Of a stretch of 64,000 nt of DNA, positions 6,238 through 64,000 are shown piece by piece; within the stretch, counting starts at the first letter, position 1; each line of letters opens with the position of its first letter. A model generated the notes under the pieces. It worked only from the letters and a program-made list of their open reading frames with translations. It was not told the origin of the DNA and did not search any database. The translations under genes were made by a program, and so were the position numbers. Source of the DNA: a virus (taxonomy: Duplodnaviria; Heunggongvirae; Uroviricota; Caudoviricetes). The DNA lies in IMG/VR virus record IMGVR_UViG_3300025913_000018, one strand, 5' to 3'.

Positions 6238-6765
6238 CTAGGCCTCTTCGATCTTCCCCGTGGGACGAAGGGGCGCGACGACTGCCTTACGCTTCGCCAT
6301 GAACTTGTTGAACGCGTCGTTCTCGGCCGTAGCGAAGGCCTCGGCCTCCACTACGATCTTCGAGAGCCGTTTGCGAAGCGCCTCGCATTGAGGGAGCGAG
6401 AGGAAGACACCCACCCGGAACGAGGGGAGCGTGTAGAAGCCCTTCCCCGCAACCCACTCCGGCTCTTTCTGGTCGCTTTGGGAGAGGATGTAGAGGTAGT
6501 CGCTGACGTCCTTCGCGGGGACGTGGATGGTGAGTCCGTCGATCGGTTCGAGTACGTAGATCTTCCGACGGGAAGAAGCCATCCCCCCGAGATCCAGATG
6601 GCCGTCGGTAGTCGGAGTCCGATCGGGCTCGTGGAACTCCACCCGATGCTTTTCGGTCGCGTCCTTCCTCCACAGCTCCACCAGGTTGTCCGCGATCGAG
6701 TCCTCGCACAAGGTTCGAGGCGGGCTGAGATCGGCGAAGCCCGGGAACAGGTACATCCAGGTCAT
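6238..6765 (-). CDS. hypothetical protein
   Basis: Trimmed to MTWMYLFPGF... (ATG 6763-6765), overlapping the upstream stop as ATGA. Confidence 0.45.
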   Translation of the reverse strand: MTWMYLFPGFADLSPPRTLCEDSIADNLVELWRKDATEKHRVEFHEPDRTPTTDGHLDLGGMASSRRKIYVLEPIDGLTIHVPAKDVSDYLYILSQSDQKEPEWVAGKGFYTLPSFRVGVFLSLPQCEALRKRLSKIVVEAEAFATAENDAFNKFMAKRKAVVAPLRPTGKIEEA

Positions 6766-7559
6766 GCCGGCCTCCGAACGAGAGCGGGGCGGACTTGGAG
6801 GAGGTAGAGGATGTCGTCGTGGATCGCCCACTCGATGTCCAGAACCTCGAAAGACGGGAACGCGTCGCGGCACTTCTCCGTCAGCTCGACGAGCGCGTCC
6901 AGCTCGTCAGTTCCGAGAAGGAGCTTCGAGTGAGTCTCCACCTCGACCTTCAGAGTCCCGATCACGGGGCTCGGCTGGAACATGACGGTCTGGTGACCGA
7001 GACGCGCTGGAGGGTCTACCGTCTCCCCCGTGAGCCGGTACTGGTCCGGGTCGACGATCCCCTGAACGATCGCCTCCCCGAGTCCTCGAACCGCCTCGAC
7101 GACATACTCGTCGGCACCCGTTGCGGGGTTCCGAGTGAAGAGGACCCCCGAGAGTTCGGCCGGGATGAAGGTCTGGATGCAGACGGCCATTTCCGGAGCC
7201 CCCGACACCCCTAGGCGCCTTCGGTACTCCTCCGCCCGCGGCGAGTAGGCCGAAGCCTCGACGCCCCGAATAGCCTCCTCTAGGAACTTCTTCGGGACGT
7301 TCAGGCTGGTGGAGTGGATCCCGGCGAAGGAAGCCTCCACCCCGTCCTCTTTCGGAGCCGAAGAGCGAACCGCGTACGGACCCTGAAGAAGCCCCTCGAC
7401 GAGGGTTCCGATCTCGTCCGGAAGGTCTGCCACCTCCGAGACCGAGAGGGCGAGCCCGTCCGGAACCGGAAGCCCGGCACGAAGGGCGATCGCGAGGGCC
7501 GCCGTCTTCCCGCCGTAGAGGCGAGAGTCGATCGCGTCCGCGAGCGAGGTGAGGGTCAT
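6762..7559 (-). CDS. PEP synthase / pyruvate-phosphate-dikinase N-terminal (PPDK_N, ATP-grasp-like) nucleotide-binding domain protein
   Basis: YGGKTAALAIALRAGLPVPDGLALS and SSAPKEDGVEASFAGIHSTSLNV resemble the GGKAANL...GxPVPxGF and SSA..ED...SFAGQ..T motifs of PEP synthase / rifampin phosphotransferase N-domains. ATGA-coupled to the upstream gene. Confidence 0.65.
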   Translation of the reverse strand: MTLTSLADAIDSRLYGGKTAALAIALRAGLPVPDGLALSVSEVADLPDEIGTLVEGLLQGPYAVRSSAPKEDGVEASFAGIHSTSLNVPKKFLEEAIRGVEASAYSPRAEEYRRRLGVSGAPEMAVCIQTFIPAELSGVLFTRNPATGADEYVVEAVRGLGEAIVQGIVDPDQYRLTGETVDPPARLGHQTVMFQPSPVIGTLKVEVETHSKLLLGTDELDALVELTEKCRDAFPSFEVLDIEWAIHDDILYLLQVRPALVRRPA

Positions 7560-8968
7560 TCGTCGTCTCCCGTGTCCTGGTACGGGGAGGGGTGGCTGAT
7601 GTAGCCGCGATCCGAGTCGAGGCGGAGCTTCATCCCCCTCGGGTAGCGCTTCACCGCGTCCTTCACGCGGAAGATCGGGATCCGCATCTCACGGGCGATG
7701 ATCGAGAGGTGGGAAAGCTCCCCGCCGTTCTCGGTGATGATTCCGCGCGCCTTCTCGATCGCTGCGTTGTTCTCGGGCGTGTTGCTGAGGTCCTTCAGGA
7801 CGAAGATGCAGCCGGGGGATTCCCCGACGTACCCCTCGCACTCCGGAGCCGACGCCAAAACGGTGCACTCGAAATTCCCGTATTTCGCCTGGACCTCGCC
7901 CATCTTCGCGAGAGCCGCTTCCATGACAGGGTTCCGAGAGAAGGAAGATCCTTCTTCGAAGGAGATCCCCGCCCCGAGCAACCAGTCGGTGTGGTAGGGG
8001 TCGTCCATCTGCATCTTCATCCCCGAGACCGAGACTTCCTTCCATTCCGGGGCGAGATGGCGAAGGGAGTGGGAACGACGAAGGGCCCAGTTCTCGAAGG
8101 GCGCGAGGGGGACCTGGAACGTTCGACCGTCCGACGTGACGAGATCGAAGAGGTTCCCATTGGCCTGCTTCAGGACGTCCTCTCGGATCTGAACGAGCTT
8201 CGCCTGGTAGGCGATCTCCCGCTTCATGTCCTCCTCTTCTTGGAACTCGGCTTCGCACTCGGCTTCCTCGCGAGCCTCACGCTCCCCGCGGTAGTCGCGG
8301 TGGTCTTCTTCCTCGTCCGGCGACCCCATCGCTCCGATCGCGCTGATCTTGTGGCCGGCGGCGACGTACTCGCGAATGGCGTCTTCGGGGAGGAGAAGCT
8401 CGTCGCGCCAGAAGGGGGCTTCTCCGACCGGCTCGAACAGGAAGAAGCGGCAGCGTCTGTGGTCGTAGTCGCTCTTCCGGTCGCGGGGGATCTCCACGCA
8501 GATCACGCCCTCGTGAGCGTAGTGGCGGGCCCGGTTCTTCCACCATTTACGGATCAGCGCCATGTGCTCGGGCGCCGTCCCGATATCCTCGTTGGGGTCG
8601 GGCAGGTCGAGCGAAGCGGAGATCGCGTCCTCGGGGCTGAAGGCCACGACCTCGGCGTACGGGCGATACCACGCGTTCTTGATCTTCACGCGACCGGCGT
8701 AGATGAACGCCAGGGTCTTCTGGTACTTCGCCGAAGAACGGTCCTTCGCGACTCGGATCCCCTTCGACGAATCGCCGGTGAACTTCTTCAGACCCTTCAG
8801 GACGTCGATCGCGACGCCCTGAAGCTCCCCCGGATTCCCTCCCGAGAGGGACGTCTGGATCATCCGCCACGCCTTCCCCGGAGCGTCGGAGAGGAGCAAG
8901 CCCCGAGCGTGCTCGGTGATGAAGGAACCCTCGATCAGGAAGTGGGCGACGCGTTCCGTACTGGTCAT
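7556..8968 (-). CDS. protein with C-terminal PEP-utilising (phospho-histidine swivel) domain; N-terminal ~380 aa unknown
   Basis: C-terminus ARGIITENGGELSHLSIIAREMRIPIF resembles the PEP-utilizers mobile domain GG.TSHAAI.ARE.GIP with its catalytic His. An acidic EEED-rich linker sits mid-protein. Confidence 0.65.
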   Translation of the reverse strand: MTSTERVAHFLIEGSFITEHARGLLLSDAPGKAWRMIQTSLSGGNPGELQGVAIDVLKGLKKFTGDSSKGIRVAKDRSSAKYQKTLAFIYAGRVKIKNAWYRPYAEVVAFSPEDAISASLDLPDPNEDIGTAPEHMALIRKWWKNRARHYAHEGVICVEIPRDRKSDYDHRRCRFFLFEPVGEAPFWRDELLLPEDAIREYVAAGHKISAIGAMGSPDEEEDHRDYRGEREAREEAECEAEFQEEEDMKREIAYQAKLVQIREDVLKQANGNLFDLVTSDGRTFQVPLAPFENWALRRSHSLRHLAPEWKEVSVSGMKMQMDDPYHTDWLLGAGISFEEGSSFSRNPVMEAALAKMGEVQAKYGNFECTVLASAPECEGYVGESPGCIFVLKDLSNTPENNAAIEKARGIITENGGELSHLSIIAREMRIPIFRVKDAVKRYPRGMKLRLDSDRGYISHPSPYQDTGDDE

Positions 8969-13685: not shown

Positions 13686-14368
13686 ACGGTCTCCTCGAAG
13701 TCTTCGCGCCGGAAGTCGGAAGGCGGGGTCCACCCCTTCTGAAGGGCTGTTCGAATCCACTCGGGAAGCGGCGGCTTCCTCCCGAGAAGTTCGTGGATGG
13801 TCTGGAGATCCGAGAGATCTTCCTTCGCCTCCGCGAGTAGCTGGTCGCTCGTGACTCGGCCGAGGCTACCACCATGGGCCGAGTCCATCCAGCAGACTCC
13901 GGCCGAATCGATCGCCCAACACGTCGGGATATCCCAACCGGTGTGCCAGACGGAACCCGTTCCGCGAAGCGGGAGCACCGGAAGGCCTTCCCACTCTTCT
14001 TCGATGTAGAACTCGGTGAGACGTTCTCGACTTCCCTTCGGACTCTCGATCCGAACGAGATGGTCGACCATGTAGGGGTCTCTCCCGTCCTTGTAGCGGA
14101 AGGTCGGGATGAAGCGCTCGTCCGCGGGAAACTTCCCCTCAGCGCGGGCCTTCGCGGTGATCTCGCTTTCTACCCGCGCGAGCCTCTCGTTCTCCCGAGC
14201 GAGGTTCTCATCGCTGAGGCGAGCGCGCCGCAAGCTGTCGTCGGCGCGACGCGTGGCGATGTCCTGGATCTCGGTCCTCAGCTCCGGGGAAGCCTTCTGA
14301 CGCTCCTCGTAGGAGAGGGAGATGAACGCGTCGAGCTTCTCGATTTCTTCTTCGGTGGGGGCGCTCAT
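13682..14368 (-). CDS. hypothetical protein, paralogue family A member 2
   Basis: 228 aa; see 12245..12880. Confidence 0.55.
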   Translation of the reverse strand: MSAPTEEEIEKLDAFISLSYEERQKASPELRTEIQDIATRRADDSLRRARLSDENLARENERLARVESEITAKARAEGKFPADERFIPTFRYKDGRDPYMVDHLVRIESPKGSRERLTEFYIEEEWEGLPVLPLRGTGSVWHTGWDIPTCWAIDSAGVCWMDSAHGGSLGRVTSDQLLAEAKEDLSDLQTIHELLGRKPPLPEWIRTALQKGWTPPSDFRREDFEETV

Positions 14369-14370
14369 GA

Positions 14371-14577
14371 TCAGATGCTCTGGATGAAGTCGAGGATGGA
14401 GTTCCTCTCGTCTTGGGTCGGGCTTGGACTGTTACTCGCTCGGCGCGCGTAGAACGTCGCCCAAGCGCCCGGCATGTCCCCCGAGCAAGCGAGACGAACG
14501 AAGAGACGTCGATCCTCACCGTTCGGGAGGAAGACTCGAAGGAGCTGATGCCCGGGGTGAAGCTTCAGATCGTTCAC
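14371..14577 (-). CDS. small hypothetical protein
   Basis: 68-aa ORF. Confidence 0.35.
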   Translation of the reverse strand: MNDLKLHPGHQLLRVFLPNGEDRRLFVRLACSGDMPGAWATFYARRASNSPSPTQDERNSILDFIQSI

Positions 14578-14855
14578 GAGACCACTTCCACTTCGTAGCT
14601 CGCGAGATCGAACTGCTTTCCGTCCGGGGCCCGGACGGAGTAGATCACGAGGGCTTCCTCGGGAAGGCCCGTCCCGGGCTTCACATCGTGATCCACATCG
14701 TCGTCGTTCTCCACGGTGTTCGAGACGACGACACCGGTGAACCCGAGGTCTTCCTTCTGAGGATGGGGATCGCGACCCAAGAGGCCGTACTGGTCGATCT
14801 CGACGAGACGAACACGAGCGCCGAAGGGGAGGATCACGGTGGGGTCGTAGGACAT
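14574..14855 (-). CDS. hypothetical acidic protein
   Basis: MSYDPTVILPFGARV...; ATG 14853-14855 one nt from the upstream stop. Confidence 0.45.
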   Translation of the reverse strand: MSYDPTVILPFGARVRLVEIDQYGLLGRDPHPQKEDLGFTGVVVSNTVENDDDVDHDVKPGTGLPEEALVIYSVRAPDGKQFDLASYEVEVVS

Positions 14856-14856
14856 G

Positions 14857-15357
14857 TCACGGCTCCATGGGGCAGGGGAGTTTCTCTTCGCTTCGCGCCG
14901 TCCCCCACGCGTACCAGGGCGCGCGAGGATCTCCGCAGGTCGTCTCGGTCTCGCGGATCGCGAGCATCGCCTCTCGATGGGAGGCGTAGGGACCACGAAC
15001 GATCCGGGTCTTCCCCTTCTCGTTCCGAACGCTGACGTAGTAGTTCCCCGGACGCGGGTCGACGGGACCGAAGCGGATCGTCGGGTCGTAGGGAGCGGGA
15101 TTCTCGCGAACCCACCGCTCGATCTTCCGGTAGCGCCAGCGGCACTCCCCGCCCCGATACTCGCGTTCGAGGGCGCGGCCCCCGTCCCAGATCTGGACGA
15201 TGAACGCTTCGATCGTCTCGGGGGCGAGGGGCGCGAGAAGGCCAGCGTGGGAGAGGGCCTCGATCACGTCGCTCTCGAAGAGGCGCTCGTTCTCGATCGT
15301 CGCGCGGAACGCGAGACCGTAGATGATCCCGTTGAGGGCCGAGTCGACGTGGTTCAT
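14857..15357 (-). CDS. hypothetical protein
   Basis: 166-aa ORF. Confidence 0.5.
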   Translation of the reverse strand: MNHVDSALNGIIYGLAFRATIENERLFESDVIEALSHAGLLAPLAPETIEAFIVQIWDGGRALEREYRGGECRWRYRKIERWVRENPAPYDPTIRFGPVDPRPGNYYVSVRNEKGKTRIVRGPYASHREAMLAIRETETTCGDPRAPWYAWGTARSEEKLPCPMEP

Positions 15358-15602
15358 GAGCCCCCTCCTTCGAATTGGACCTCAACTAGACCGTCTTCGA
15401 AGTCCTCGTTGGTCAGGTCGAACCACTTGTTCCGCGAGTCGCACTCCTCGCAACAGTACTGAGCGGCCGTGAGGGTCTCCCAGGGCTTGTTCGTCCAGCA
15501 GATCACCCCTCCGAGCCCTCCGTCCCACTTGGTGGCGTTCGGCTTCCCGCAGAACTTGCAGATCCTCTGAGCGGGATCTCGAACCGGCTTGAAGTTGTTC
15601 AT
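15354..15602 (-). CDS. zinc-ribbon protein (CKFCG...CCEEC)
   Basis: 82 aa with ATGA overlap at both ends. Confidence 0.5.
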   Translation of the reverse strand: MNNFKPVRDPAQRICKFCGKPNATKWDGGLGGVICWTNKPWETLTAAQYCCEECDSRNKWFDLTNEDFEDGLVEVQFEGGGS

Positions 15603-15775
15603 GACTTCTTCTCCCGATATTGACGGATGTGACCGAGAATCTCCTTCCGACGGCGAAGACGCCAGTGCCAGTCGGTCTTCACTTCGGCCCGACTCTTGAA
15701 GAGTCGGAAGGCCAAGATCTTGTGAATCTCGGCCTCTCGTTCGGGCGTGATCACGACCCCCACGGGCGCTTCCAT
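15599..15775 (-). CDS. small hypothetical protein
   Basis: MEAPVGVVITPEREAEIHKILAF... Confidence 0.35.
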   Translation of the reverse strand: MEAPVGVVITPEREAEIHKILAFRLFKSRAEVKTDWHWRLRRRKEILGHIRQYREKKS

Positions 15776-31534: not shown

Positions 31535-32461
31535 TCAGTGATCGCTCATCATGACGCCGAACCCGCTGTTCGGCACGAACATCGTCCGAGTCCCGGTGCT
31601 CTGGAGGACCGAGCTGAGCGCTTCGATCCGACGATACTCCAAGACCGACGGGGTCATCGAGGCGGAGATCGTCTGGTTCGCGTAAGCGGTCGCGTCCGCT
31701 TCGGCACGTGTCGTGTAGGCGGCCGTGTCCGCGACGATTCTCTGGGCCGTGGCGTGACCGTTCGCCTCGGTCTGAACTCGGTTCGCTTCAGCCTGAGCCG
31801 TGAGAAGAGCCTGCTGAGCGCGAACGGTCTCCTGACGTTGGTTCTGGACGGCTGCGATCGCGGCGTCGAGAGAGTCCGGAAGATCCGTCCCCTGTAGGAG
31901 GATGTTCTCCACGACGACCGCATTCGTCGGAACGTTTCGACTCGACAGAGCCTCTTCGAGACGAGAGTGGACGAGGTTCTCCATCATCGTCTGGAGCCGT
32001 GGGCGCTCGTCCACCAGCTCGATCGCTGTGAAGGTCGAGGCGGCGTCTCGGATCGCAGTGCGGACGATCGGATGTACGATCGTGTCCGCGTACGACTCTC
32101 CGTAGTACCGGTAGATCTGAGGCGCCGTCGTCGCGTTGAGATGGAACTGGACCGTCGCGCTGAGGATCACTTCCAGCTGGTCGTGGGAGAGGACGTGGAT
32201 CGCGTCTCCGCGGGCGATCGTGCTCTCCGGGGCTCCATCCTGAGAAGTGGTCGTTCCGCTCGTCCCCATCTCGTAGGCCTGGGTCCGAGTCGACATGTGG
32301 ATGACGTTCATCCACATGCTCGTGAAGTGGTAGCCCTCGGGATAGATCCACGGCTGGGTCTCGCCCCAATCGACCCCGACCCCGACCTCGCCGGGATTGA
32401 TAGTCTCGGAACACCCGATCGAGAACGCCGACGCCAACAGGAACATCAGAACACGAGTCAT
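31535..32461 (-). CDS. SPFH/band-7 (prohibitin/HflKC-like) lipoprotein
   Basis: Lipobox MTRVLMFLLASAFSIGC; SPFH-like core and Ala/Gln-rich coiled-coil tail. Confidence 0.65.
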   Translation of the reverse strand: MTRVLMFLLASAFSIGCSETINPGEVGVGVDWGETQPWIYPEGYHFTSMWMNVIHMSTRTQAYEMGTSGTTTSQDGAPESTIARGDAIHVLSHDQLEVILSATVQFHLNATTAPQIYRYYGESYADTIVHPIVRTAIRDAASTFTAIELVDERPRLQTMMENLVHSRLEEALSSRNVPTNAVVVENILLQGTDLPDSLDAAIAAVQNQRQETVRAQQALLTAQAEANRVQTEANGHATAQRIVADTAAYTTRAEADATAYANQTISASMTPSVLEYRRIEALSSVLQSTGTRTMFVPNSGFGVMMSDH

Positions 32462-33869: not shown

Positions 33870-34763
33870 TCACGGAAACTTTCTCGTCGGGGCTCTCGAT
33901 AGGCCCGGCGGACGGATCAACTCGTCCGTGAGCTTCGAGGGGAGATCGTTCGTCTTCCCGAGGAGCGACCCGAGCCCCAAACAGAGCGCCGCGAGGGTGT
34001 CTACGTCGCCTCCGAGGGCGACCGCCTGTACGAGAAGCTCGTGGAGGGTCTCGTGCCGTAGGAGGAGCCCGAAGGCGGCCTCAACGATCATCCTCCCGCT
34101 CGTAGAACCGACCCTCCATTGGACCGGATCCCAGAACCGAGGGTCGGCCCATCCGAGGTGGGACATTGTGGTCGTGAGACCGGTACGAGTCCCGTTGTAG
34201 GCCGCCAGCGCCACGGCCACCGCCGCGTCGATCGAGTCCGGATGGTGGTGGGTAGCGCGAGCCTGAGCTATCGCCGCCGTCATGACGTGATACCCGGCGA
34301 ACTTCTTCTCACCGGTGAATGGGCTGATCAAGCCGACCGGAATCGCTCGCATCGCCGCCCCGCACGTGTCCTTCAGGTTCGTCTCGATTCCTTCGCGGCA
34401 TCTCGCCATGAGGTCGAGGCCTGGTGTCACGCTTCGAGCGGCCTCGGGGAGAACGGCTCTCATCCGGCCGCCATAGCCGGGGGCGGGGTCGAACTTGTAC
34501 TCGGCGACGAACTCGTCCGCGAAGTCCACCGACCTCCACCAGAACTCCGTCTTCATGACCGCGAGCGTCATCTGGGTGTCGTCGGTCGTTCCTCCCGGTC
34601 GATGGTTCCGATCGAGCCCGTGGACTCGGTAGGTGAGCCCGTCGTTGTTCTCCTTCACGAAGGAGAGAGGACGCATCTCGAACCCGGCCCCGTAAGCGTC
34701 GCCCACCATGAAGGCGAGAAGCCACTCGGAAACGGTCTCGACCTCGGGATAGTGCTCAGACAT
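33870..34763 (-). CDS. ADP-ribosylglycohydrolase (ARH/DraG family)
   Basis: N-terminal GDAYGAGFE, GGTTDDTQMTLAV, C-terminal GGDVDTLAALCLGLGSLLG; 297 aa. Confidence 0.8.
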   Translation of the reverse strand: MSEHYPEVETVSEWLLAFMVGDAYGAGFEMRPLSFVKENNDGLTYRVHGLDRNHRPGGTTDDTQMTLAVMKTEFWWRSVDFADEFVAEYKFDPAPGYGGRMRAVLPEAARSVTPGLDLMARCREGIETNLKDTCGAAMRAIPVGLISPFTGEKKFAGYHVMTAAIAQARATHHHPDSIDAAVAVALAAYNGTRTGLTTTMSHLGWADPRFWDPVQWRVGSTSGRMIVEAAFGLLLRHETLHELLVQAVALGGDVDTLAALCLGLGSLLGKTNDLPSKLTDELIRPPGLSRAPTRKFP

Positions 34764-47423: not shown

Positions 47424-48044
47424 TCACTTTCGGTTCTGTTCCACGAGGGCCTGAGAGAACCGGGGCTCCGCGAGTCCGGTTCCGTACGCCCACTTCAGCG
47501 ACGTCGAGATGGCGTCGTAGGGACCGGGAACCGATCGAACGCCGTAGGAGCCGACCTCGATCCCGCCCACGTACAGGTCGTTTCCGTTCTGAGTGATGAC
47601 GCGCTTCATAGAGGCGCCTTCCTCATGGAAGAACTCAGCCGCATCCGCAATGAGCTTCGAGAAGCCCTCCTGAGGATCCGGGTTCGGAACGAACAGCTCC
47701 ACCTTCATGAAGGTCTTCTGGTGAATGGCGGAACGAGGGTCGCCCCGGAAGCACGGGCTGACCCCGACGATCGGCGTGACGGGATCTATCGCCATGCGTC
47801 TCAACAGCCAGAGGAAGGACTGCTCGGCCGAACCCACCAGCTCCCCGAACGCCCGATCGCCGACGGAGATCTGGTAAGGGGTTGCCCCCGGTGGGAGAGT
47901 CTCGCGGACGATTTCCGCGGGGACCACCCAAGGCGCCTCGGCGTACGCGTAGCCCAGGCTCCGGTAGAACTCGACCGCCCGACCGATCCGAGACCAGTCG
48001 ATCGGGACGTTGTCAAGGAATTCGAGGGGTTCGGGTTCCGTCAC
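47424..48044 (-). CDS. class II aminoacyl-tRNA-synthetase-like catalytic core (AsnA/PoxA-like), truncated
   Basis: Motif-2-like SPCFRGDPRSAIHQKTFMKVELF. Only ~206 aa; no anticodon-binding domain. GTG start with AAGGAGG SD. Confidence 0.45.
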   Translation of the reverse strand: MTEPEPLEFLDNVPIDWSRIGRAVEFYRSLGYAYAEAPWVVPAEIVRETLPPGATPYQISVGDRAFGELVGSAEQSFLWLLRRMAIDPVTPIVGVSPCFRGDPRSAIHQKTFMKVELFVPNPDPQEGFSKLIADAAEFFHEEGASMKRVITQNGNDLYVGGIEVGSYGVRSVPGPYDAISTSLKWAYGTGLAEPRFSQALVEQNRK

Positions 48045-48267
48045 GGAAGACCTCCTTCGTCCGCTCGTTCATCTGCCTCAGATCATCCATCGAGACGCCG
48101 AGCTTCTCCGCGTACCCCTCGATCGCCCCGTAGAGGTCGGCCAGCTCGCAGAGTTCCATGATGAAGATGCCCTGCTCGTTCGAGTCCTCCAGCTCCTCAA
48201 GTTCCTCTCGAATCTTGGAGATCTCCCCGTAGACTCCCGGCGCGATTTCTCGTTTGTGGTACCCCAC
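48013..48267 (-). CDS. MazG-like nucleotide pyrophosphohydrolase domain protein (small)
   Basis: IREELEELEDSNEQGIFIMELCELADLYGAIEGYAEKLG resembles the MazG EExxE...D helix pair; GTG start after GGGCGTAAAGAGG. Confidence 0.45.
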   Translation of the reverse strand: MGYHKREIAPGVYGEISKIREELEELEDSNEQGIFIMELCELADLYGAIEGYAEKLGVSMDDLRQMNERTKEVFRDGTRTPRIP

Positions 48268-60675: not shown

Positions 60676-60962
60676 TCGCTCCTCGTTACGAACTCGAACA
60701 TCTCGATGTCGACCAACGTAGTCTCCAAGACGCAGTCCTCGCTCATGAAGAGGATCGGACGAAAGAACATCCGGATTCGATCGTTCGGAGCCGGGAGGGA
60801 CTCCTTCGGACCCAAGAACAGGCCACGCTTCGAAGCCTCCGAGGCGATCCCGAGGATGGAAAGGAAGCCCCCCTCCTCCGACTTCAGGAAGAGCTTCAGG
60901 CGAAGGGCTTCGACCCGAGCGTCTTCGAAGGAGTAGTGCTTGATCTGTACGGGTTGGCCCAC
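60672..60962 (-). CDS. hypothetical protein (GTG start)
   Basis: GGCGTAAGG SD. Confidence 0.45.
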   Translation of the reverse strand: MGQPVQIKHYSFEDARVEALRLKLFLKSEEGGFLSILGIASEASKRGLFLGPKESLPAPNDRIRMFFRPILFMSEDCVLETTLVDIEMFEFVTRSE

Positions 60963-60975
60963 GTATCCCTTACGC

Positions 60976-62328
60976 CTACCAGAGCTTGTCCCCCGCCCGA
61001 GGCCCGAAAGACTGAACAGCCACCGGGATATCCAGCTCCTGTTCGAGCTTCCTCACGTAGTCCCCCACGTCGTCGTTTCGAACGGTCTGATAGATCGGCC
61101 TACACCCGAGAAGGTCTCGGGTGAGCTGGCTCTGATAGTCGAGGTCCCCAGGCGCGCGAGGACGAAGGGAACTAGCCCGACCCCCTTCCATGAAGAAGCG
61201 TTCCTCGCTCCCCGGAGGAACCTCGTACGCCTCGCACATCGACCACTGAGGGAAATAGCGAAGTCGATCCAGACACGTCACCGCGAGTTCGGTGATGTCG
61301 GGGCACAGACTGAGCGCGTAGCGAGCGAGGGGGAGATCGAACCACCCCACTCGGAAAGATCCTTGCCATCCTGCGTCATGGTTGGCGGCGTCCCGGAGCG
61401 CCTTAGTGAGCGCCTCGTTCTCGGTCGGGAACGGTCCCTGACCGTGACGGGTCGAGTAGGCGCGGAGAACGCCGATACGACGGACCGGACCTTCGCGCCC
61501 CGATTCCTTGATCAGGTCGTCGGCGTTCTTCGTCGTGGTCGTACTCCACGTCGTGTGTGGATGGAACCCGTGCCACTCATCCAAGAGGACTCCCTGAGCC
61601 CCTTCGAAGATGACGTGTTCGGTTCCAGAGATCTGAGCCTCGACCTGATACGGAGCCGCGATGTGGACCATCTCTCCCACATCGAAGTAGAGGAGAAGGG
61701 CCATCTCCTCCAGCATTCCGATCTTGCGGAAGACTCGAAGGTCCTCCGAAGCGCTTTCCATTCCCTGGAGCTTCGGGAGAAGAGGTTCGATCTGAGCCAA
61801 CTTCAACTCCCGAAGCTGGTTCATCTTGCTCAGGAGGATCTTCGAGTCCCGAAGGTCCCCAGCTCGAAGGACGAGATCCGGATGGTCGAGGGAGTCCCCT
61901 ACCGTCTCCCCGACACCCAACCCACACGTACCGTGACGACCTTCTCCCCTCGCCATCTCCCGAAGGCGGTTGGCTGCTTGCTGGTAGGGGGAGATCACGA
62001 GCGCCCTCTCGTCGACCACGAGTCGAGAAAGAGCGTCACTCACCCCGATGGAGATGAGATGGTTGTTCTCAGCGAGGAGACCGGAAGGGTGGAAGACGAA
62101 GTGCTTCGAGAGAAGCGTTCGAGACCCGGGAACGAATGTAGCCGCCCCGAACTGAGAGAACACATGCTCTCTTCCGTCCGGGGCGACAACACGATGACCA
62201 GCTTGGGCGCCGCCATTGTGCCTCACTACGAGAGGCGGCGACGAACAGCGACGCGCGATAGCGTCGACCATCGTGCCCTTACCCGCGTCACCGAAACCGA
62301 GATCTACGACGACGTGGGTAGAGGGCAC
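60976..62328 (-). CDS. adenylosuccinate synthetase family protein (PurA/PurZ-like), divergent
   Basis: VVVDLGFGDAGKGTMVD (PurA P-loop GDEGKGK), RHNGGAQAGHRVV (QGGHNAGHT), HVIFEGAQGVLLDEWHG, AYSTRHGQGPFPTE. The Asp-binding loop reads GWQGSFRV instead of TTGRRRR, and CLD replaces the GTP-specificity KLD. Confidence 0.75.
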   Translation of the reverse strand: MPSTHVVVDLGFGDAGKGTMVDAIARRCSSPPLVVRHNGGAQAGHRVVAPDGREHVFSQFGAATFVPGSRTLLSKHFVFHPSGLLAENNHLISIGVSDALSRLVVDERALVISPYQQAANRLREMARGEGRHGTCGLGVGETVGDSLDHPDLVLRAGDLRDSKILLSKMNQLRELKLAQIEPLLPKLQGMESASEDLRVFRKIGMLEEMALLLYFDVGEMVHIAAPYQVEAQISGTEHVIFEGAQGVLLDEWHGFHPHTTWSTTTTKNADDLIKESGREGPVRRIGVLRAYSTRHGQGPFPTENEALTKALRDAANHDAGWQGSFRVGWFDLPLARYALSLCPDITELAVTCLDRLRYFPQWSMCEAYEVPPGSEERFFMEGGRASSLRPRAPGDLDYQSQLTRDLLGCRPIYQTVRNDDVGDYVRKLEQELDIPVAVQSFGPRAGDKLW

Positions 62329-62337
62329 GGCAGGACC

Positions 62338-63315
62338 TCAGATACGAACGGTGCCGCCGGTCGAGTCACCCGAGTCGGGGAGCTTCCCGACGAGGGAACC
62401 CGGCGTCGCGCGAGCGAGGGCATCCTTCAGCGGAACGATCGCCGCTCCGACCGACTTCACGGTTCCGGCGCTCGCGCCCGAGTCGCGAAGCACCCCGTTC
62501 ACCGCATCGATGGAGTGGCCCTCGCAGAGACCGATCGTCGCCGCGATCAGCTCGCAGATGCTTCCCGGATCGTCGAGCTTCAGCGCACGCTCTCCGAGCA
62601 GCTCCTTCCACCCGGCGAGGATCGAGGGATGATTGCCCGTGGGCGTCCCCACGACGATGTGGAAGACGTTGTAGCGGCTCTGACACGCGCGGATCAGATC
62701 CTTCACCTGGACGTCGGCCTCGTTCGAGTCACCGAAGATCCGCAACGCCTCGTCGCGCTTGATCGTCGGCCAGACCAGCTCGTCGCCGATCGTGAAGAGG
62801 TAGCCCGGCTTCCCGCGCTTCTCCCAGCAATCGATGCTGGTGTGATTCGCGAAGAAGTAGTGGGCGAGCCCGTACGACTCCATGTTCTGACCACCACCGT
62901 TCCCCTCGATGTAGATGTCGGTCAGGCACTGGTCGATCTCCAGGCCCGACTCGAACTGACCGACCTGGAACGGGGTCGTGTCCGAGTACGAGTCGCCCAC
63001 AGCCCCGAAGAGAACCTGGGGGTGGGGGATCACGCTCTTCTCGACGAGCATCCGCATCAGCCCACCCAGCTTGTGCTGGGCGAACTCGAAGGGCGTGTGG
63101 CCCATCGATCCCGTGACGTCGAAGATCACGCCGATCGCGTTCGACTCCGGGTGATCCGCCGAATCGCGCGACTCGCGAACCTTCACCCCCTTCGGGTCGA
63201 GACTCGGCTTGAGCTTCGTCGAGAAGACCTTCGCCTTCGCCGTTCCGTAGTCCATCGTTGCACGGGGTGCGCTGATGTTCTTGTACGCATCATCCGACCA
63301 ACTGGAGTAACCCAT
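62338..63315 (-). CDS. von Willebrand factor type A (vWA) domain protein
   Basis: MIDAS motif IGVIFDVTGSMGH (DxSGS). Confidence 0.65.
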   Translation of the reverse strand: MGYSSWSDDAYKNISAPRATMDYGTAKAKVFSTKLKPSLDPKGVKVRESRDSADHPESNAIGVIFDVTGSMGHTPFEFAQHKLGGLMRMLVEKSVIPHPQVLFGAVGDSYSDTTPFQVGQFESGLEIDQCLTDIYIEGNGGGQNMESYGLAHYFFANHTSIDCWEKRGKPGYLFTIGDELVWPTIKRDEALRIFGDSNEADVQVKDLIRACQSRYNVFHIVVGTPTGNHPSILAGWKELLGERALKLDDPGSICELIAATIGLCEGHSIDAVNGVLRDSGASAGTVKSVGAAIVPLKDALARATPGSLVGKLPDSGDSTGGTVRI

Positions 63316-63332
63316 CTTCGACCTTCTTTCGT

Positions 63333-64000
63333 TCAGACTCGCGGAGGCATCGTAAACGCACGATACTTCCTCTTCCCGAAGTTCTTCTCCAGAACTTCAT
63401 CGTAGACCCGGTAGGCGTCCCACCCGTTCTTGATGCCGCCGGAGCGACACACGGTGAAGAACGCATCCACGTTCGCGGGAACGTCCGAGCGGACCTTCCC
63501 CTTTCGATCCGAGACGAGGAGCGCCGCGCACTCCCCGATGAGCTGGACGTCCAGCACCGAGGTCGCCGGAGCCTTCTTCAGTACCGAGGCAGGGTACATG
63601 TCCTTCCGCGAGGCGCTGATGGCGGTGAGCCGCTGGCCGCTCTGAACCGCGTACGACCAGCCGACGATCCGAGCCCCGTGACCCACGGGATCGACCAGGA
63701 CGTGCTCCGGAAGAACAGCTCCGTGAACGAGGTTGTGGCTGTGGATCCAGCCGAGTCCCTCGAAGGCGCGACGAATCATCCACGCCGCATCCCGCACGTC
63801 GAGCCCGTCCGGGTACGCCGTCCGAACCTCCGCGAGACTGAAGTAGCCCTCGGCTACGTCGAGAACATTCACCCTTCGGTGCTTCCCGCCCTCGATCATC
63901 GGGAAGCTGTCCAGGAGCTTCGGGAAATACTTCTGGAAGACGGGCGCCTTCGCATCGTCCTTTCCGTGGATGTTCGCGAGGAAACGCGCCTCGTTGTCGA
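63333..64000 (-). CDS. protein-kinase-like fold protein with degenerate catalytic motifs (probable pseudokinase); N-terminus beyond window end
   Basis: LGWIHSHNLVHGAVLPEHVLVD...ARIVGWSYA aligns to kinase subdomains VIb-VII (HRDLKPENILL...DFG) with HRD to HGA, N to H and DFG to GWS. The reading frame continues to base 64000. Confidence 0.45.
   Translation of the reverse strand, partial: DNEARFLANIHGKDDAKAPVFQKYFPKLLDSFPMIEGGKHRRVNVLDVAEGYFSLAEVRTAYPDGLDVRDAAWMIRRAFEGLGWIHSHNLVHGAVLPEHVLVDPVGHGARIVGWSYAVQSGQRLTAISASRKDMYPASVLKKAPATSVLDVQLIGECAALLVSDRKGKVRSDVPANVDAFFTVCRSGGIKNGWDAYRVYDEVLEKNFGKRKYRAFTMPPRV

Follow-up and report, generated by a model that had tools for sequence, protein, structure and literature searches.

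An adenylosuccinate synthetase homologue with a remodelled substrate pocket, encoded beside vWA and J-domain pseudokinase genes in phages and bacteria

This work concerns an open reading frame (ORF) at 60976..62328 of IMG/VR virus record IMGVR_UViG_3300025913_000018, a 64,000-nucleotide stretch of Caudoviricetes DNA (hereafter, the window), whose product resembles adenylosuccinate synthetase (AdSS), or PurA. Judged from its sequence, the encoded PurA-like protein is a divergent, remodelled homologue of AdSS that has lost the aspartate-binding site, and its gene is, on the residue comparisons reported below, a member of an unnamed third class beside PurA and PurZ in the AdSS superfamily, with a remodelled substrate pocket and a vWA partner. 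The decisive context lies immediately upstream of this gene, where conserved genes encode a vWA-domain protein and a J-domain pseudokinase, and it had been missed by an earlier interpretation drawn from the DNA letters (the sequence-only reading). The three genes form a module conserved in phages and bacteria, and the PurA-like family itself is an unnamed variant within the AdSS superfamily. Coordinates are collected in Table 1.

Membership of the superfamily was indicated by Pfam PF00709 (Adenylsucc_synt), which covered residues 6-444 of the 450-aa ORF (E = 8e-66; 222.9 bits against a gathering cut-off of 27), and by a match to phrog_1211 (4e-75). Every AdSS fold motif quoted in the sequence-only reading was indeed found in the translation, which, besides the motifs of Table 1, contains FEGAQG (residues 241-246) and AYSTRHGQGPFPTE (residues 290-303). 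The protein is identical to a 450-aa PurA-like ORF called on public contigs from metagenomes, 100,834 bp and 472,929 bp long, and relatives at 44-64% identity were returned by a search of 5.8 billion proteins. Such relatives are annotated as AdSS by GenBank and JGI, and the family bears the label '2-aminooxy adenylosuccinate synthetase' in PHROGs and RefSeq. The NCBIfam PurA equivalog models were both failed (NF002223, 176.6 bits against 402; TIGR00184, 155.2 against 395.55), and a Rhodococcus member of the family likewise remained below the PurA equivalog cut-offs. The NCBIfam PurZ model NF038379 gave 37.9 bits against a cut-off of 300, and this over residues 5-119 only.

Residues were mapped in E. 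coli PurA (1ADE) numbering, using a phmmer pairwise alignment and a 142-sequence MAFFT alignment, and their conservation was counted in 135 family sequences taken from databases and from fetched loci. The window protein shares fold and length class with E. coli PurA (PDB 1ADE and others) and is about 31% identical to it over aligned columns. All aspartate ligands are replaced, and at the pocket positions N38, T129, R143', S240 and V273 the family has fixed residues of its own. Both alignments indicated that Asp13, Lys16, His41, Gln224, Thr239 and Asp333 are kept, and that E14A, K18T, N38Q, T129C, R131L, R143H, S240W, V273H and K331C distinguish the window protein. In its aspartate loop, T300, T301, R303, R304 and R305 are all lost in either alignment, R306 being the only arginine retained; Arg131, a further side chain that holds aspartate in PurA, is lost as well, and from the IMP-pocket set of Asn38, Thr129, Arg143', Thr239 and Val273, Thr239 alone survives. 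The three substitutions stressed by the sequence-only reading, namely GDAGKGT in the P-loop, TCLD, and the altered aspartate loop, were thus correctly identified; N38Q, T129C, R131L, R143H, S240W and V273H had escaped it.

Conservation of these positions was clearly family-wide. Asp13, Lys16, His41, Gln224 and Asp333 are each invariant (135/135), as is Thr239 in all sequences except one (134/135), and the replacements are fixed to a comparable extent: Gln for Asn at position 38 (135/135), His for Val at 273 (134/135), Gln for Gly at 302 (133/135), Cys for Thr at 129 (125/135), Trp for Ser at 240 (116/135) and Phe for Arg at 305 (108/135), together with an aromatic residue at 301 (126/135) and the retained R306 (134/135). 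Position 131 is hydrophobic in the family, and position 331 is occupied by C in 60, H in 59 and N in 12 of the 135 sequences. A motif scan of the best 120 database relatives recovered throughout a P-loop of the form G[FY]GD[AS]GKG[TS], followed by GGAQAGH, then G[ST]CGxGxG, then WQGxFRxGW, and finally T[CHN]LD. Since the altered loop is kept across 135 relatives, it is a selected feature of the family, in line with the earlier proposal that loss of the Arg cluster points to a different acceptor chemistry. By these counts, the altered motifs are family-wide signatures and not decay, and the pocket is, as far as such conservation patterns tell, under purifying selection for something other than IMP and aspartate. 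The copy carried by Vibrio phage VB_VaC_TDDLMA keeps Asn38 and Thr129 and has Asn at 333; it may be an intermediate form of the family.

From a mechanistic point of view, Asp13 acts as the base and His41 as the acid in the E. coli enzyme, and Gln224 binds the lactam. Because the P-loop, Asp13, Lys16, His41, Gln224, Thr239 and Asp333 are shared with PurA, the first half-reaction is probably the same, that is, GTP-dependent phosphorylation of the purine 6-oxo group. The kept residues, which bind GTP and Mg2+ and serve catalysis, thus suggest that the machinery for purine-lactam activation is intact, in contrast to the aspartate site and to a large part of the nucleotide pocket. Previous studies have shown that Asp13 is an essential catalytic residue of PurA (PMC12884076), that R303 contacts both the aspartate substrate and the 2'-OH of IMP (PMC8342488), that N49, T132, Q190 and V241 of S-2L PurZ, the equivalents of N38, T129, Q224 and V273, line the base pocket (PMC8342488), and that the R143 equivalent (R146') from the other subunit pairs with the phosphate (PMC8342488).

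Alignment and phylogeny placed the family outside both named classes. A neighbour-joining tree separated it from E. coli PurA, Staphylococcus phage PurA and two PurZ sequences in 50 of 50 bootstraps, with these four sequences as outgroups. The PurA of Staphylococcus phage Kay, a canonical phage PurA, keeps every one of the E. coli residues. The two PurZ references share 19-21% identity with the PurA-like protein, are 351-388 aa long, carry Ser13 and keep the equivalents of R143' and R305.

The operon of the window is ordered with the J-domain pseudokinase first, the vWA gene second and the PurA-like gene last, and the Shine-Dalgarno-like sequences GAAGG and GAGG precede the starts at its 17-nt and 9-nt gaps, respectively. 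A vWA fold was predicted with high confidence for the middle protein (pLDDT 93.1, pTM 0.90), and the MIDAS residues D66, T68 and S70 are invariant in its family. Both termini of this protein are conserved: Met-Gly begins 110 of 120 called proteins and essentially all locus copies, and Arg followed by Leu, Ile or Val closes about 95 of the 120, after a low-confidence (disordered) tail. In the upstream protein, the profile of the N-terminal 85 residues matched some 60 solved J-domains (best 1.5e-8; E. coli DnaJ 5e-8), with similarity to their helix II-III region, and the HPD tripeptide is present in 109 of 118 homologues. A kinase fold was weakly detected in the same protein (Pkinase 1e-6 in one homologue; phrog_3043). 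His-Gly-Ala stands in place of the kinase His-Arg-Asp, the Asp of which is found in 1 of 118 homologues, and the DFG Asp, which 51 of 118 have, is missing from the window copy. We read this protein, on its motifs, as a pseudokinase scaffold that would recruit Hsp70.

Bacterial pairs made of a cytoplasmic vWA/MIDAS protein and a kinase-fold protein encoded beside it, of the Ser/Thr kinase type, include the TerY-P triad and PrkA-YeaH. By contrast with these, the kinase fold of the present triad is devoid of the catalytic Asp and bears an N-terminal J-domain, no PP2C phosphatase is present, and the third partner belongs to the AdSS family; a faint match to DUF444, the YeaH family, was seen in one homologue (E = 0.22). 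No dedicated family exists in Pfam, NCBIfam or PADLOC for any of the three triad proteins, and PADLOC-DB 2.0 returned nothing for the PurA-like or vWA protein and weak kinase-domain matches for the kinase-like one. One homologue of the vWA partner (P0275, 581 aa) carries a Hint-module-like insertion after about residue 175 (Pfam Hint, E = 2.4e-4), which suggests an intein in this family. An open frame of 821 aa on the plus strand (60940..63405) runs antisense to the PurA-like, vWA and kinase-like genes; it was rejected as a gene, as its codon-position GC of 0.75/0.45/0.65 is what a shadow ORF shows when the DNA is GC-rich.

Distribution of the module was clearly wider than the window. The same three genes, in the same order, were found around the PurA-like gene in Myxococcus qinghaiensis, in Oscillochloris and on a 3-Mb metagenome contig, and the operon partners are homologous across the compared loci (pairwise BLASTP E from 1e-32 to 1e-140). 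Species-representative bacterial genomes contain at least 578 relatives of the vWA protein and IMG/VR contigs at least 545, and the profile of this protein recovered 2,413 clusters at 50% identity among 1.84 billion representatives, 1,034 of them at E <= 1e-30. The bacterial carriers belong to the Chloroflexota, Actinomycetota (Rhodococcus, Nocardia, Actinomadura), Planctomycetota, Bacteroidota and Myxococcota.

Linkage was surveyed starting from the vWA protein, with 160 loci of bacteria and phages kept. A PurA-like ORF lies immediately downstream of the vWA gene, on the same strand, in 153 of these loci; of the remaining seven, at least three are contig ends. As for the kinase-like gene, 104 loci have it directly upstream and 13 have it at another place in the locus, whereas in 43, some of them truncated, it was not detected. 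Even a more sensitive hidden Markov model built from 118 sequences detected no kinase-like gene in these 43 loci or in the Rhizobium and Vibrio phages, and Pfam found nothing in their upstream genes. The latter phages, Rhizobium phage RHph_TM3_3_6 (L169 1977..4251) and Vibrio phage VB_VaC_TDDLMA (L170 2031..4113), are proteobacterial jumbo phages in which the vWA and PurA-like genes form a pair, and because neither has a detectable kinase-like gene, the core of the module is taken to be this pair, with the kinase-like gene as a frequent third member.

The same subfamily is represented in a well-known group of phages. The 'PurA-like adenylosuccinate synthetase' of cluster C mycobacteriophages (Bxz1 gp250, Catera, ScottMcG and about 200 others) has the same signature residues, with 39% identity for Bxz1 gp250, and the Bxz1 triad consists of gp247 (J-domain kinase-like), gp248 (vWA) and gp250 (PurA-like). 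Bxz1 differs in that a further 90-aa gene, gp249, separates the vWA gene from the PurA-like gene. The name of the cluster C gene is an annotation only. It has been noted that cluster C phages have a kinase-like fold, with nothing further (PMC12363180), and our literature search, which left author manuscripts out of reach and may have missed earlier comparative-genomics work, found no description of the triad or of the function of the cluster C PurA-like gene.

Additional genes accompany the module in some lineages. In 41 of 80 bacterial loci, nearly all of them from Actinomycetota, a gene for an NrtR/NtrR-like protein (Nudix plus winged helix) directly borders the triad in the same orientation; its place is upstream of the kinase-like gene in some loci and downstream of the PurA-like gene in others (loci L031-L085, e.g., L058 8217..8882 and L044 4170..5003; L004 9475..10200). 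This assignment includes a Pfam WHD_NrtR match, and the Nudix box is degenerate in some copies and intact in others. NrtR is an ADP-ribose-responsive repressor, which hints that the actinobacterial module is controlled by an NAD-derived signal; the NrtR-like gene was not seen in the phage studied here. BLAST of a reduced set of locus ORFs revealed no universal fourth gene, with only the NrtR-like gene recurring, in Actinomycetota, and its top clusters were discarded as Arg-rich, off-frame shadow ORFs. Genes for caspase-like Peptidase_C14 proteins are found a few genes downstream of the triad in Myxococcus and Chloroflexi loci (L002 3896..5880 and 13938..15758; L003 11705..12964; L188 10324..11628) and may indicate a conflict-island context. 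The Myxococcus locus also has a NADase_transloc protein and a PIN toxin nearby.

Taken together with the residue map, this organization leads us to consider it rather likely that the PurA-like protein is a GTP-dependent ligase using an amine other than aspartate, acting in complex with, or on, the vWA protein, with DnaK brought in by the J-domain. According to such a scheme, GTP would phosphorylate the 6-oxo group of a purine nucleotide, and a neutral, non-aspartate amine would then displace the phosphate to yield an N6-substituted adenine nucleotide or conjugate. This reaction would take place in complex with, or upon, the vWA protein, and the J-domain pseudokinase would couple the complex to host DnaK/Hsp70. 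Several points weigh against this proposal. The activity, the nucleotide and the amine are all deduced from conservation; the register of the shortened loop differs by one residue between the phmmer and MAFFT alignments; and the conserved R306 left in this loop could still bind a carboxylate. The kinase-like gene is undetected in about a quarter of the loci, so that the J-domain partner is not obligatory, and the neighbour-joining tree is a distance method with few outgroups.

A different, switch-like role would make the PurA-like protein a silent subunit that binds GTP or purine nucleotides, either sensing purine nucleotides or working as a GTPase switch to regulate the vWA/pseudokinase complex, without forming a product. 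PurA indeed has a P-loop GTPase-type fold, vWA proteins commonly pair with P-loop NTPases (MoxR-vWA, chelatases), and a pseudokinase devoid of its catalytic Asp together with a protein-binding vWA domain resemble a signalling or chaperone assembly more than a pathway. However, the catalytic base, the acid, the lactam-binding Gln and the new pocket residues (Q38, H273 and Q302) are invariant, or nearly so, in the 135 sequences, which is the pattern expected from selection on catalysis and on a specific small substrate, and we hold this role to be unlikely.

The carboxylate-binding residues being all lost, a small neutral nucleophile would also fit the remodelled loop, and the enzyme could be a direct aminase, converting IMP to AMP (or a related reaction) with ammonia, as CTP synthase does, and providing adenine nucleotides without adenylosuccinate lyase. 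In one lineage, a Peptidase_S51 domain (E = 4e-20) is fused C-terminally to the PurA-like protein within a normal triad (P0080, L187 2262..4358, from a metagenome contig of 4.5 kb); no second fusion of this kind was seen. Peptidase_S51 has a class I glutamine-amidotransferase-like fold. This fusion is nevertheless a single case, and the obligate vWA partner, the bulky new aromatic residues and the changes around the nucleotide 5'-phosphate are left unexplained by ammonia, which makes such an aminase quite improbable.

Returning to the proposed ligase with a non-aspartate amine, its acceptor may be a protein amine, the best candidate being Gly2, the N-terminal glycine of the vWA partner after Met excision; we regard this version as a doubtful one. 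The vWA N-terminus would be joined to C6 of the purine nucleotide, with a mass shift of +330.04 Da for IMP, and the role of the J-domain pseudokinase would be to bring in DnaK, so that the modified complex is assembled or remodelled. This version would explain why carboxylate-binding residues gave way to aromatic and hydrogen-bonding ones, why the genes are inseparable and why Gly2 of the partner is fixed across phyla. If true, it would amount to a previously unknown post-translational modification.

An ordinary AdSS acting as an auxiliary metabolic gene, which would convert IMP, aspartate and GTP to adenylosuccinate and boost AMP supply during infection, is very improbable. It would account for the full-length PF00709 similarity, for the intact D13, K16, H41 and Q224 and for the names given to relatives by GenBank and JGI, and canonical PurA does occur in phages, as in Staphylococcus phage Kay. 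However, the protein scores far under both PurA equivalog cut-offs, T300, T301, R303, R305 and R131 are replaced and N38, T129, R143 and V273 changed consistently in the 135 sequences, and the gene is tightly linked to vWA and pseudokinase genes that take no part in purine synthesis. Moreover, no adenylosuccinate lyase was found when 130 window ORFs were swept with Pfam. The plain purine-salvage enzyme offered as an option by the sequence-only reading is likewise unlikely, since the protein has kept none of the aspartate ligands and has lost several of those for IMP.

The PurZ frame of that reading did not hold. PurZ and PurZ0 (phiVC8, S-2L, Acinetobacter phage SH-Ab 15497, Gordonia and Arthrobacter phages) are also phage-borne PurA paralogues with altered specificity, and they share the PHROG/RefSeq label. 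They differ from the PurA-like protein by Ser in place of Asp13, by a kept R143' and kept Arg of the aspartate site, by a shorter length and by a cluster with datZ, mazZ and polymerase genes, none of which is a feature of the window protein. All phage PurZ and PurZ0 indeed carry Ser for Asp13 (PMC12884076; bioRxiv 10.1101/2025.10.22.683976), whereas Asp is kept in the window protein and in 135 of 135 relatives. In the PurZ loci fetched here, genuine PurZ genes adjoin genes for a DNA polymerase, for DatZ (a dATP triphosphohydrolase) and for a dATP/dGTP pyrophosphohydrolase (MazZ/DUF550). In the window, the DatZ-like and DpoZ-like genes that the sequence-only reading proposed to look for were absent: no HD/DatZ, MazG or DNA polymerase family was found in the sweep of 130 ORFs, nor in the 8 kb beyond the window end, and DutZ/DmtZ was likewise missing from both. 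That a PurZ-like enzyme, with the MazG-like gene, makes 2-aminoadenine (Z) or another non-canonical purine deoxynucleotide for the phage genome, as the family label and the presence of a small, possibly MazG/HisE-like gene in the window might suggest, is thus close to untenable, given the kept Asp13 where 100% of phage PurZ/PurZ0 have Ser (PMC12884076), the PurZ model score, the low identity and the opposite side of the bootstrap split, the loss of the aspartate-binding Arg and R143 equivalents that PurZ keeps, the lack of adjacent DatZ, MazZ and PolA genes, the linkage of the MazG-like gene to an aaRS-like gene instead, and the chromosomal location of the module in hundreds of bacterial species, which fits virion-DNA modification poorly.

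The MazG-like gene itself, proposed in the sequence-only reading as a companion of the PurA-like gene, is real. Its 84-aa product matched phrog_6408 (8.4e-28), has homologues in 244 phage records, and starts with a conserved MGYHKREI that fits the coordinates given in Table 1. A few GenBank records call these homologues MazG-like. The likeness is, however, sub-threshold (Pfam PRA-PH at E = 0.12 and, with a family profile, the HisIE chain 7bgm at E = 2.1): single-sequence and profile searches of the PDB gave noise apart from one faint HisIE match, and a single-sequence AF2 model was poor (pLDDT 69), with no Foldseek match. An invariant acidic pattern (E21, E22, E25, D28, E41 and D44) fits the EExxE...ExxD metal motif. 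The tie to the PurA-like gene, 13 kb away, was not upheld. The conserved neighbour is instead a gene for a class II aminoacyl-tRNA synthetase (aaRS)-like protein, which overlaps the 84-aa gene by 32 nt and is adjacent to it in 15 of 15 related IMG/VR loci; phage members of its family, phrog_4806, carry the annotation 'histidyl/seryl tRNA synthetase'. The two genes also stand side by side in phAPEC8-type, Acinetobacter and Caulobacter phages, and the pair was seen in coliphages and Acinetobacter phages that fall outside the PurA-like matches. A HisZ-like and HisE-like pairing of these two proteins is an intriguing possibility.

With regard to its setting, the window has 61% GC and no tRNA genes, and its plausible genes are nearly all small and on the minus strand, many with PHROG matches only. 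A nucleotide search of its last 9 kb against phage genomes gave no match, hence the window does not belong to a catalogued phage; the nearest vWA copy, at 75% identity, lies on a 186-kb IMG/VR contig (L086). The window has the look of an accessory arm from a very large phage: the 472,929-bp contig, the small, one-strand, PHROG-only genes and the absence of tRNA genes in 64 kb suggest a jumbo or mega phage that infects a GC-rich host and is without close phage relatives in GenBank. Further matches in the window include NADAR, NUDIX, phosphoribosyltransferase, RRM_1, RrnaAD and DUF3228, several of which relate to NAD/ADP-ribose metabolism. A tie of the PurA-like gene to the ADP-ribosylglycohydrolase, NADAR, NUDIX and phosphoribosyltransferase genes was considered and rejected, as these lie at least 27 kb away and are not co-conserved.

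Table 1. Features of the 64,000-nucleotide window; motif residues are numbered in the window protein and substitutions in E. coli PurA numbering.
Feature	Position	Strand	Remarks
PurA-like enzyme, 450 aa, GTG start	60976..62328	minus	Pfam PF00709, phrog_1211; vWA-linked subfamily of the adenylosuccinate synthetase superfamily
P-loop GFGDAGKGT, residues 11-19	62272..62298	minus	D13 and K16 kept; E14A, K18T
NGGAQAGH, residues 38-45	62194..62217	minus	catalytic His41 kept; Asn38 to Gln
GTCGLGVG, residues 133-140	61909..61932	minus	GTTGRG equivalent; T129C, R131L
Remodelled aspartate loop AGWQGSFRVGW, residues 319-329	61342..61374	minus	replaces E. coli GATTGRRRRTGW, one residue shorter
VTCLD, residues 350-354	61267..61281	minus	TKLD equivalent; K331C, D333 kept
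vWA-domain partner, 325 aa, MIDAS DVTGS	62338..63315	minus	9 nt upstream of the PurA-like start
J-domain pseudokinase, C-terminal 222 codons	63333..64000	minus	full gene 363 aa (L001 7905..8996), past the window end; 17 nt upstream of the vWA start
Small acidic helical protein, 84 aa, phrog_6408, 'MazG-like'	48013..48267	minus	outside the PurA-like module
Class II aaRS-like catalytic-core protein, 206 aa, phrog_4806	47424..48044	minus	conserved partner of the 84-aa protein
ADP-ribosylglycohydrolase	33870..34763	minus	
SPFH/Band_7 protein	31535..32461	minus	
PEP-synthase/PPDK-like enzyme split in two genes	6762..8968	minus	PPDK_N 6762..7559; PEP-utilizers mobile domain 7556..8968

Phage AdSS homologues are now sorted as PurA or PurZ, and under the RefSeq/PHROG label every one of these receives a PurZ-like name. 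The vWA-linked third class is at least as widespread, with a different substrate pocket and fixed protein partners, and a new reaction in the AdSS superfamily is probable. Recognition of this class prevents false calls of Z genomes from PF00709 matches. The module is moreover common to phages and their hosts and touches Hsp70, and as Bxz1 and M. smegmatis are tractable, it is directly testable.

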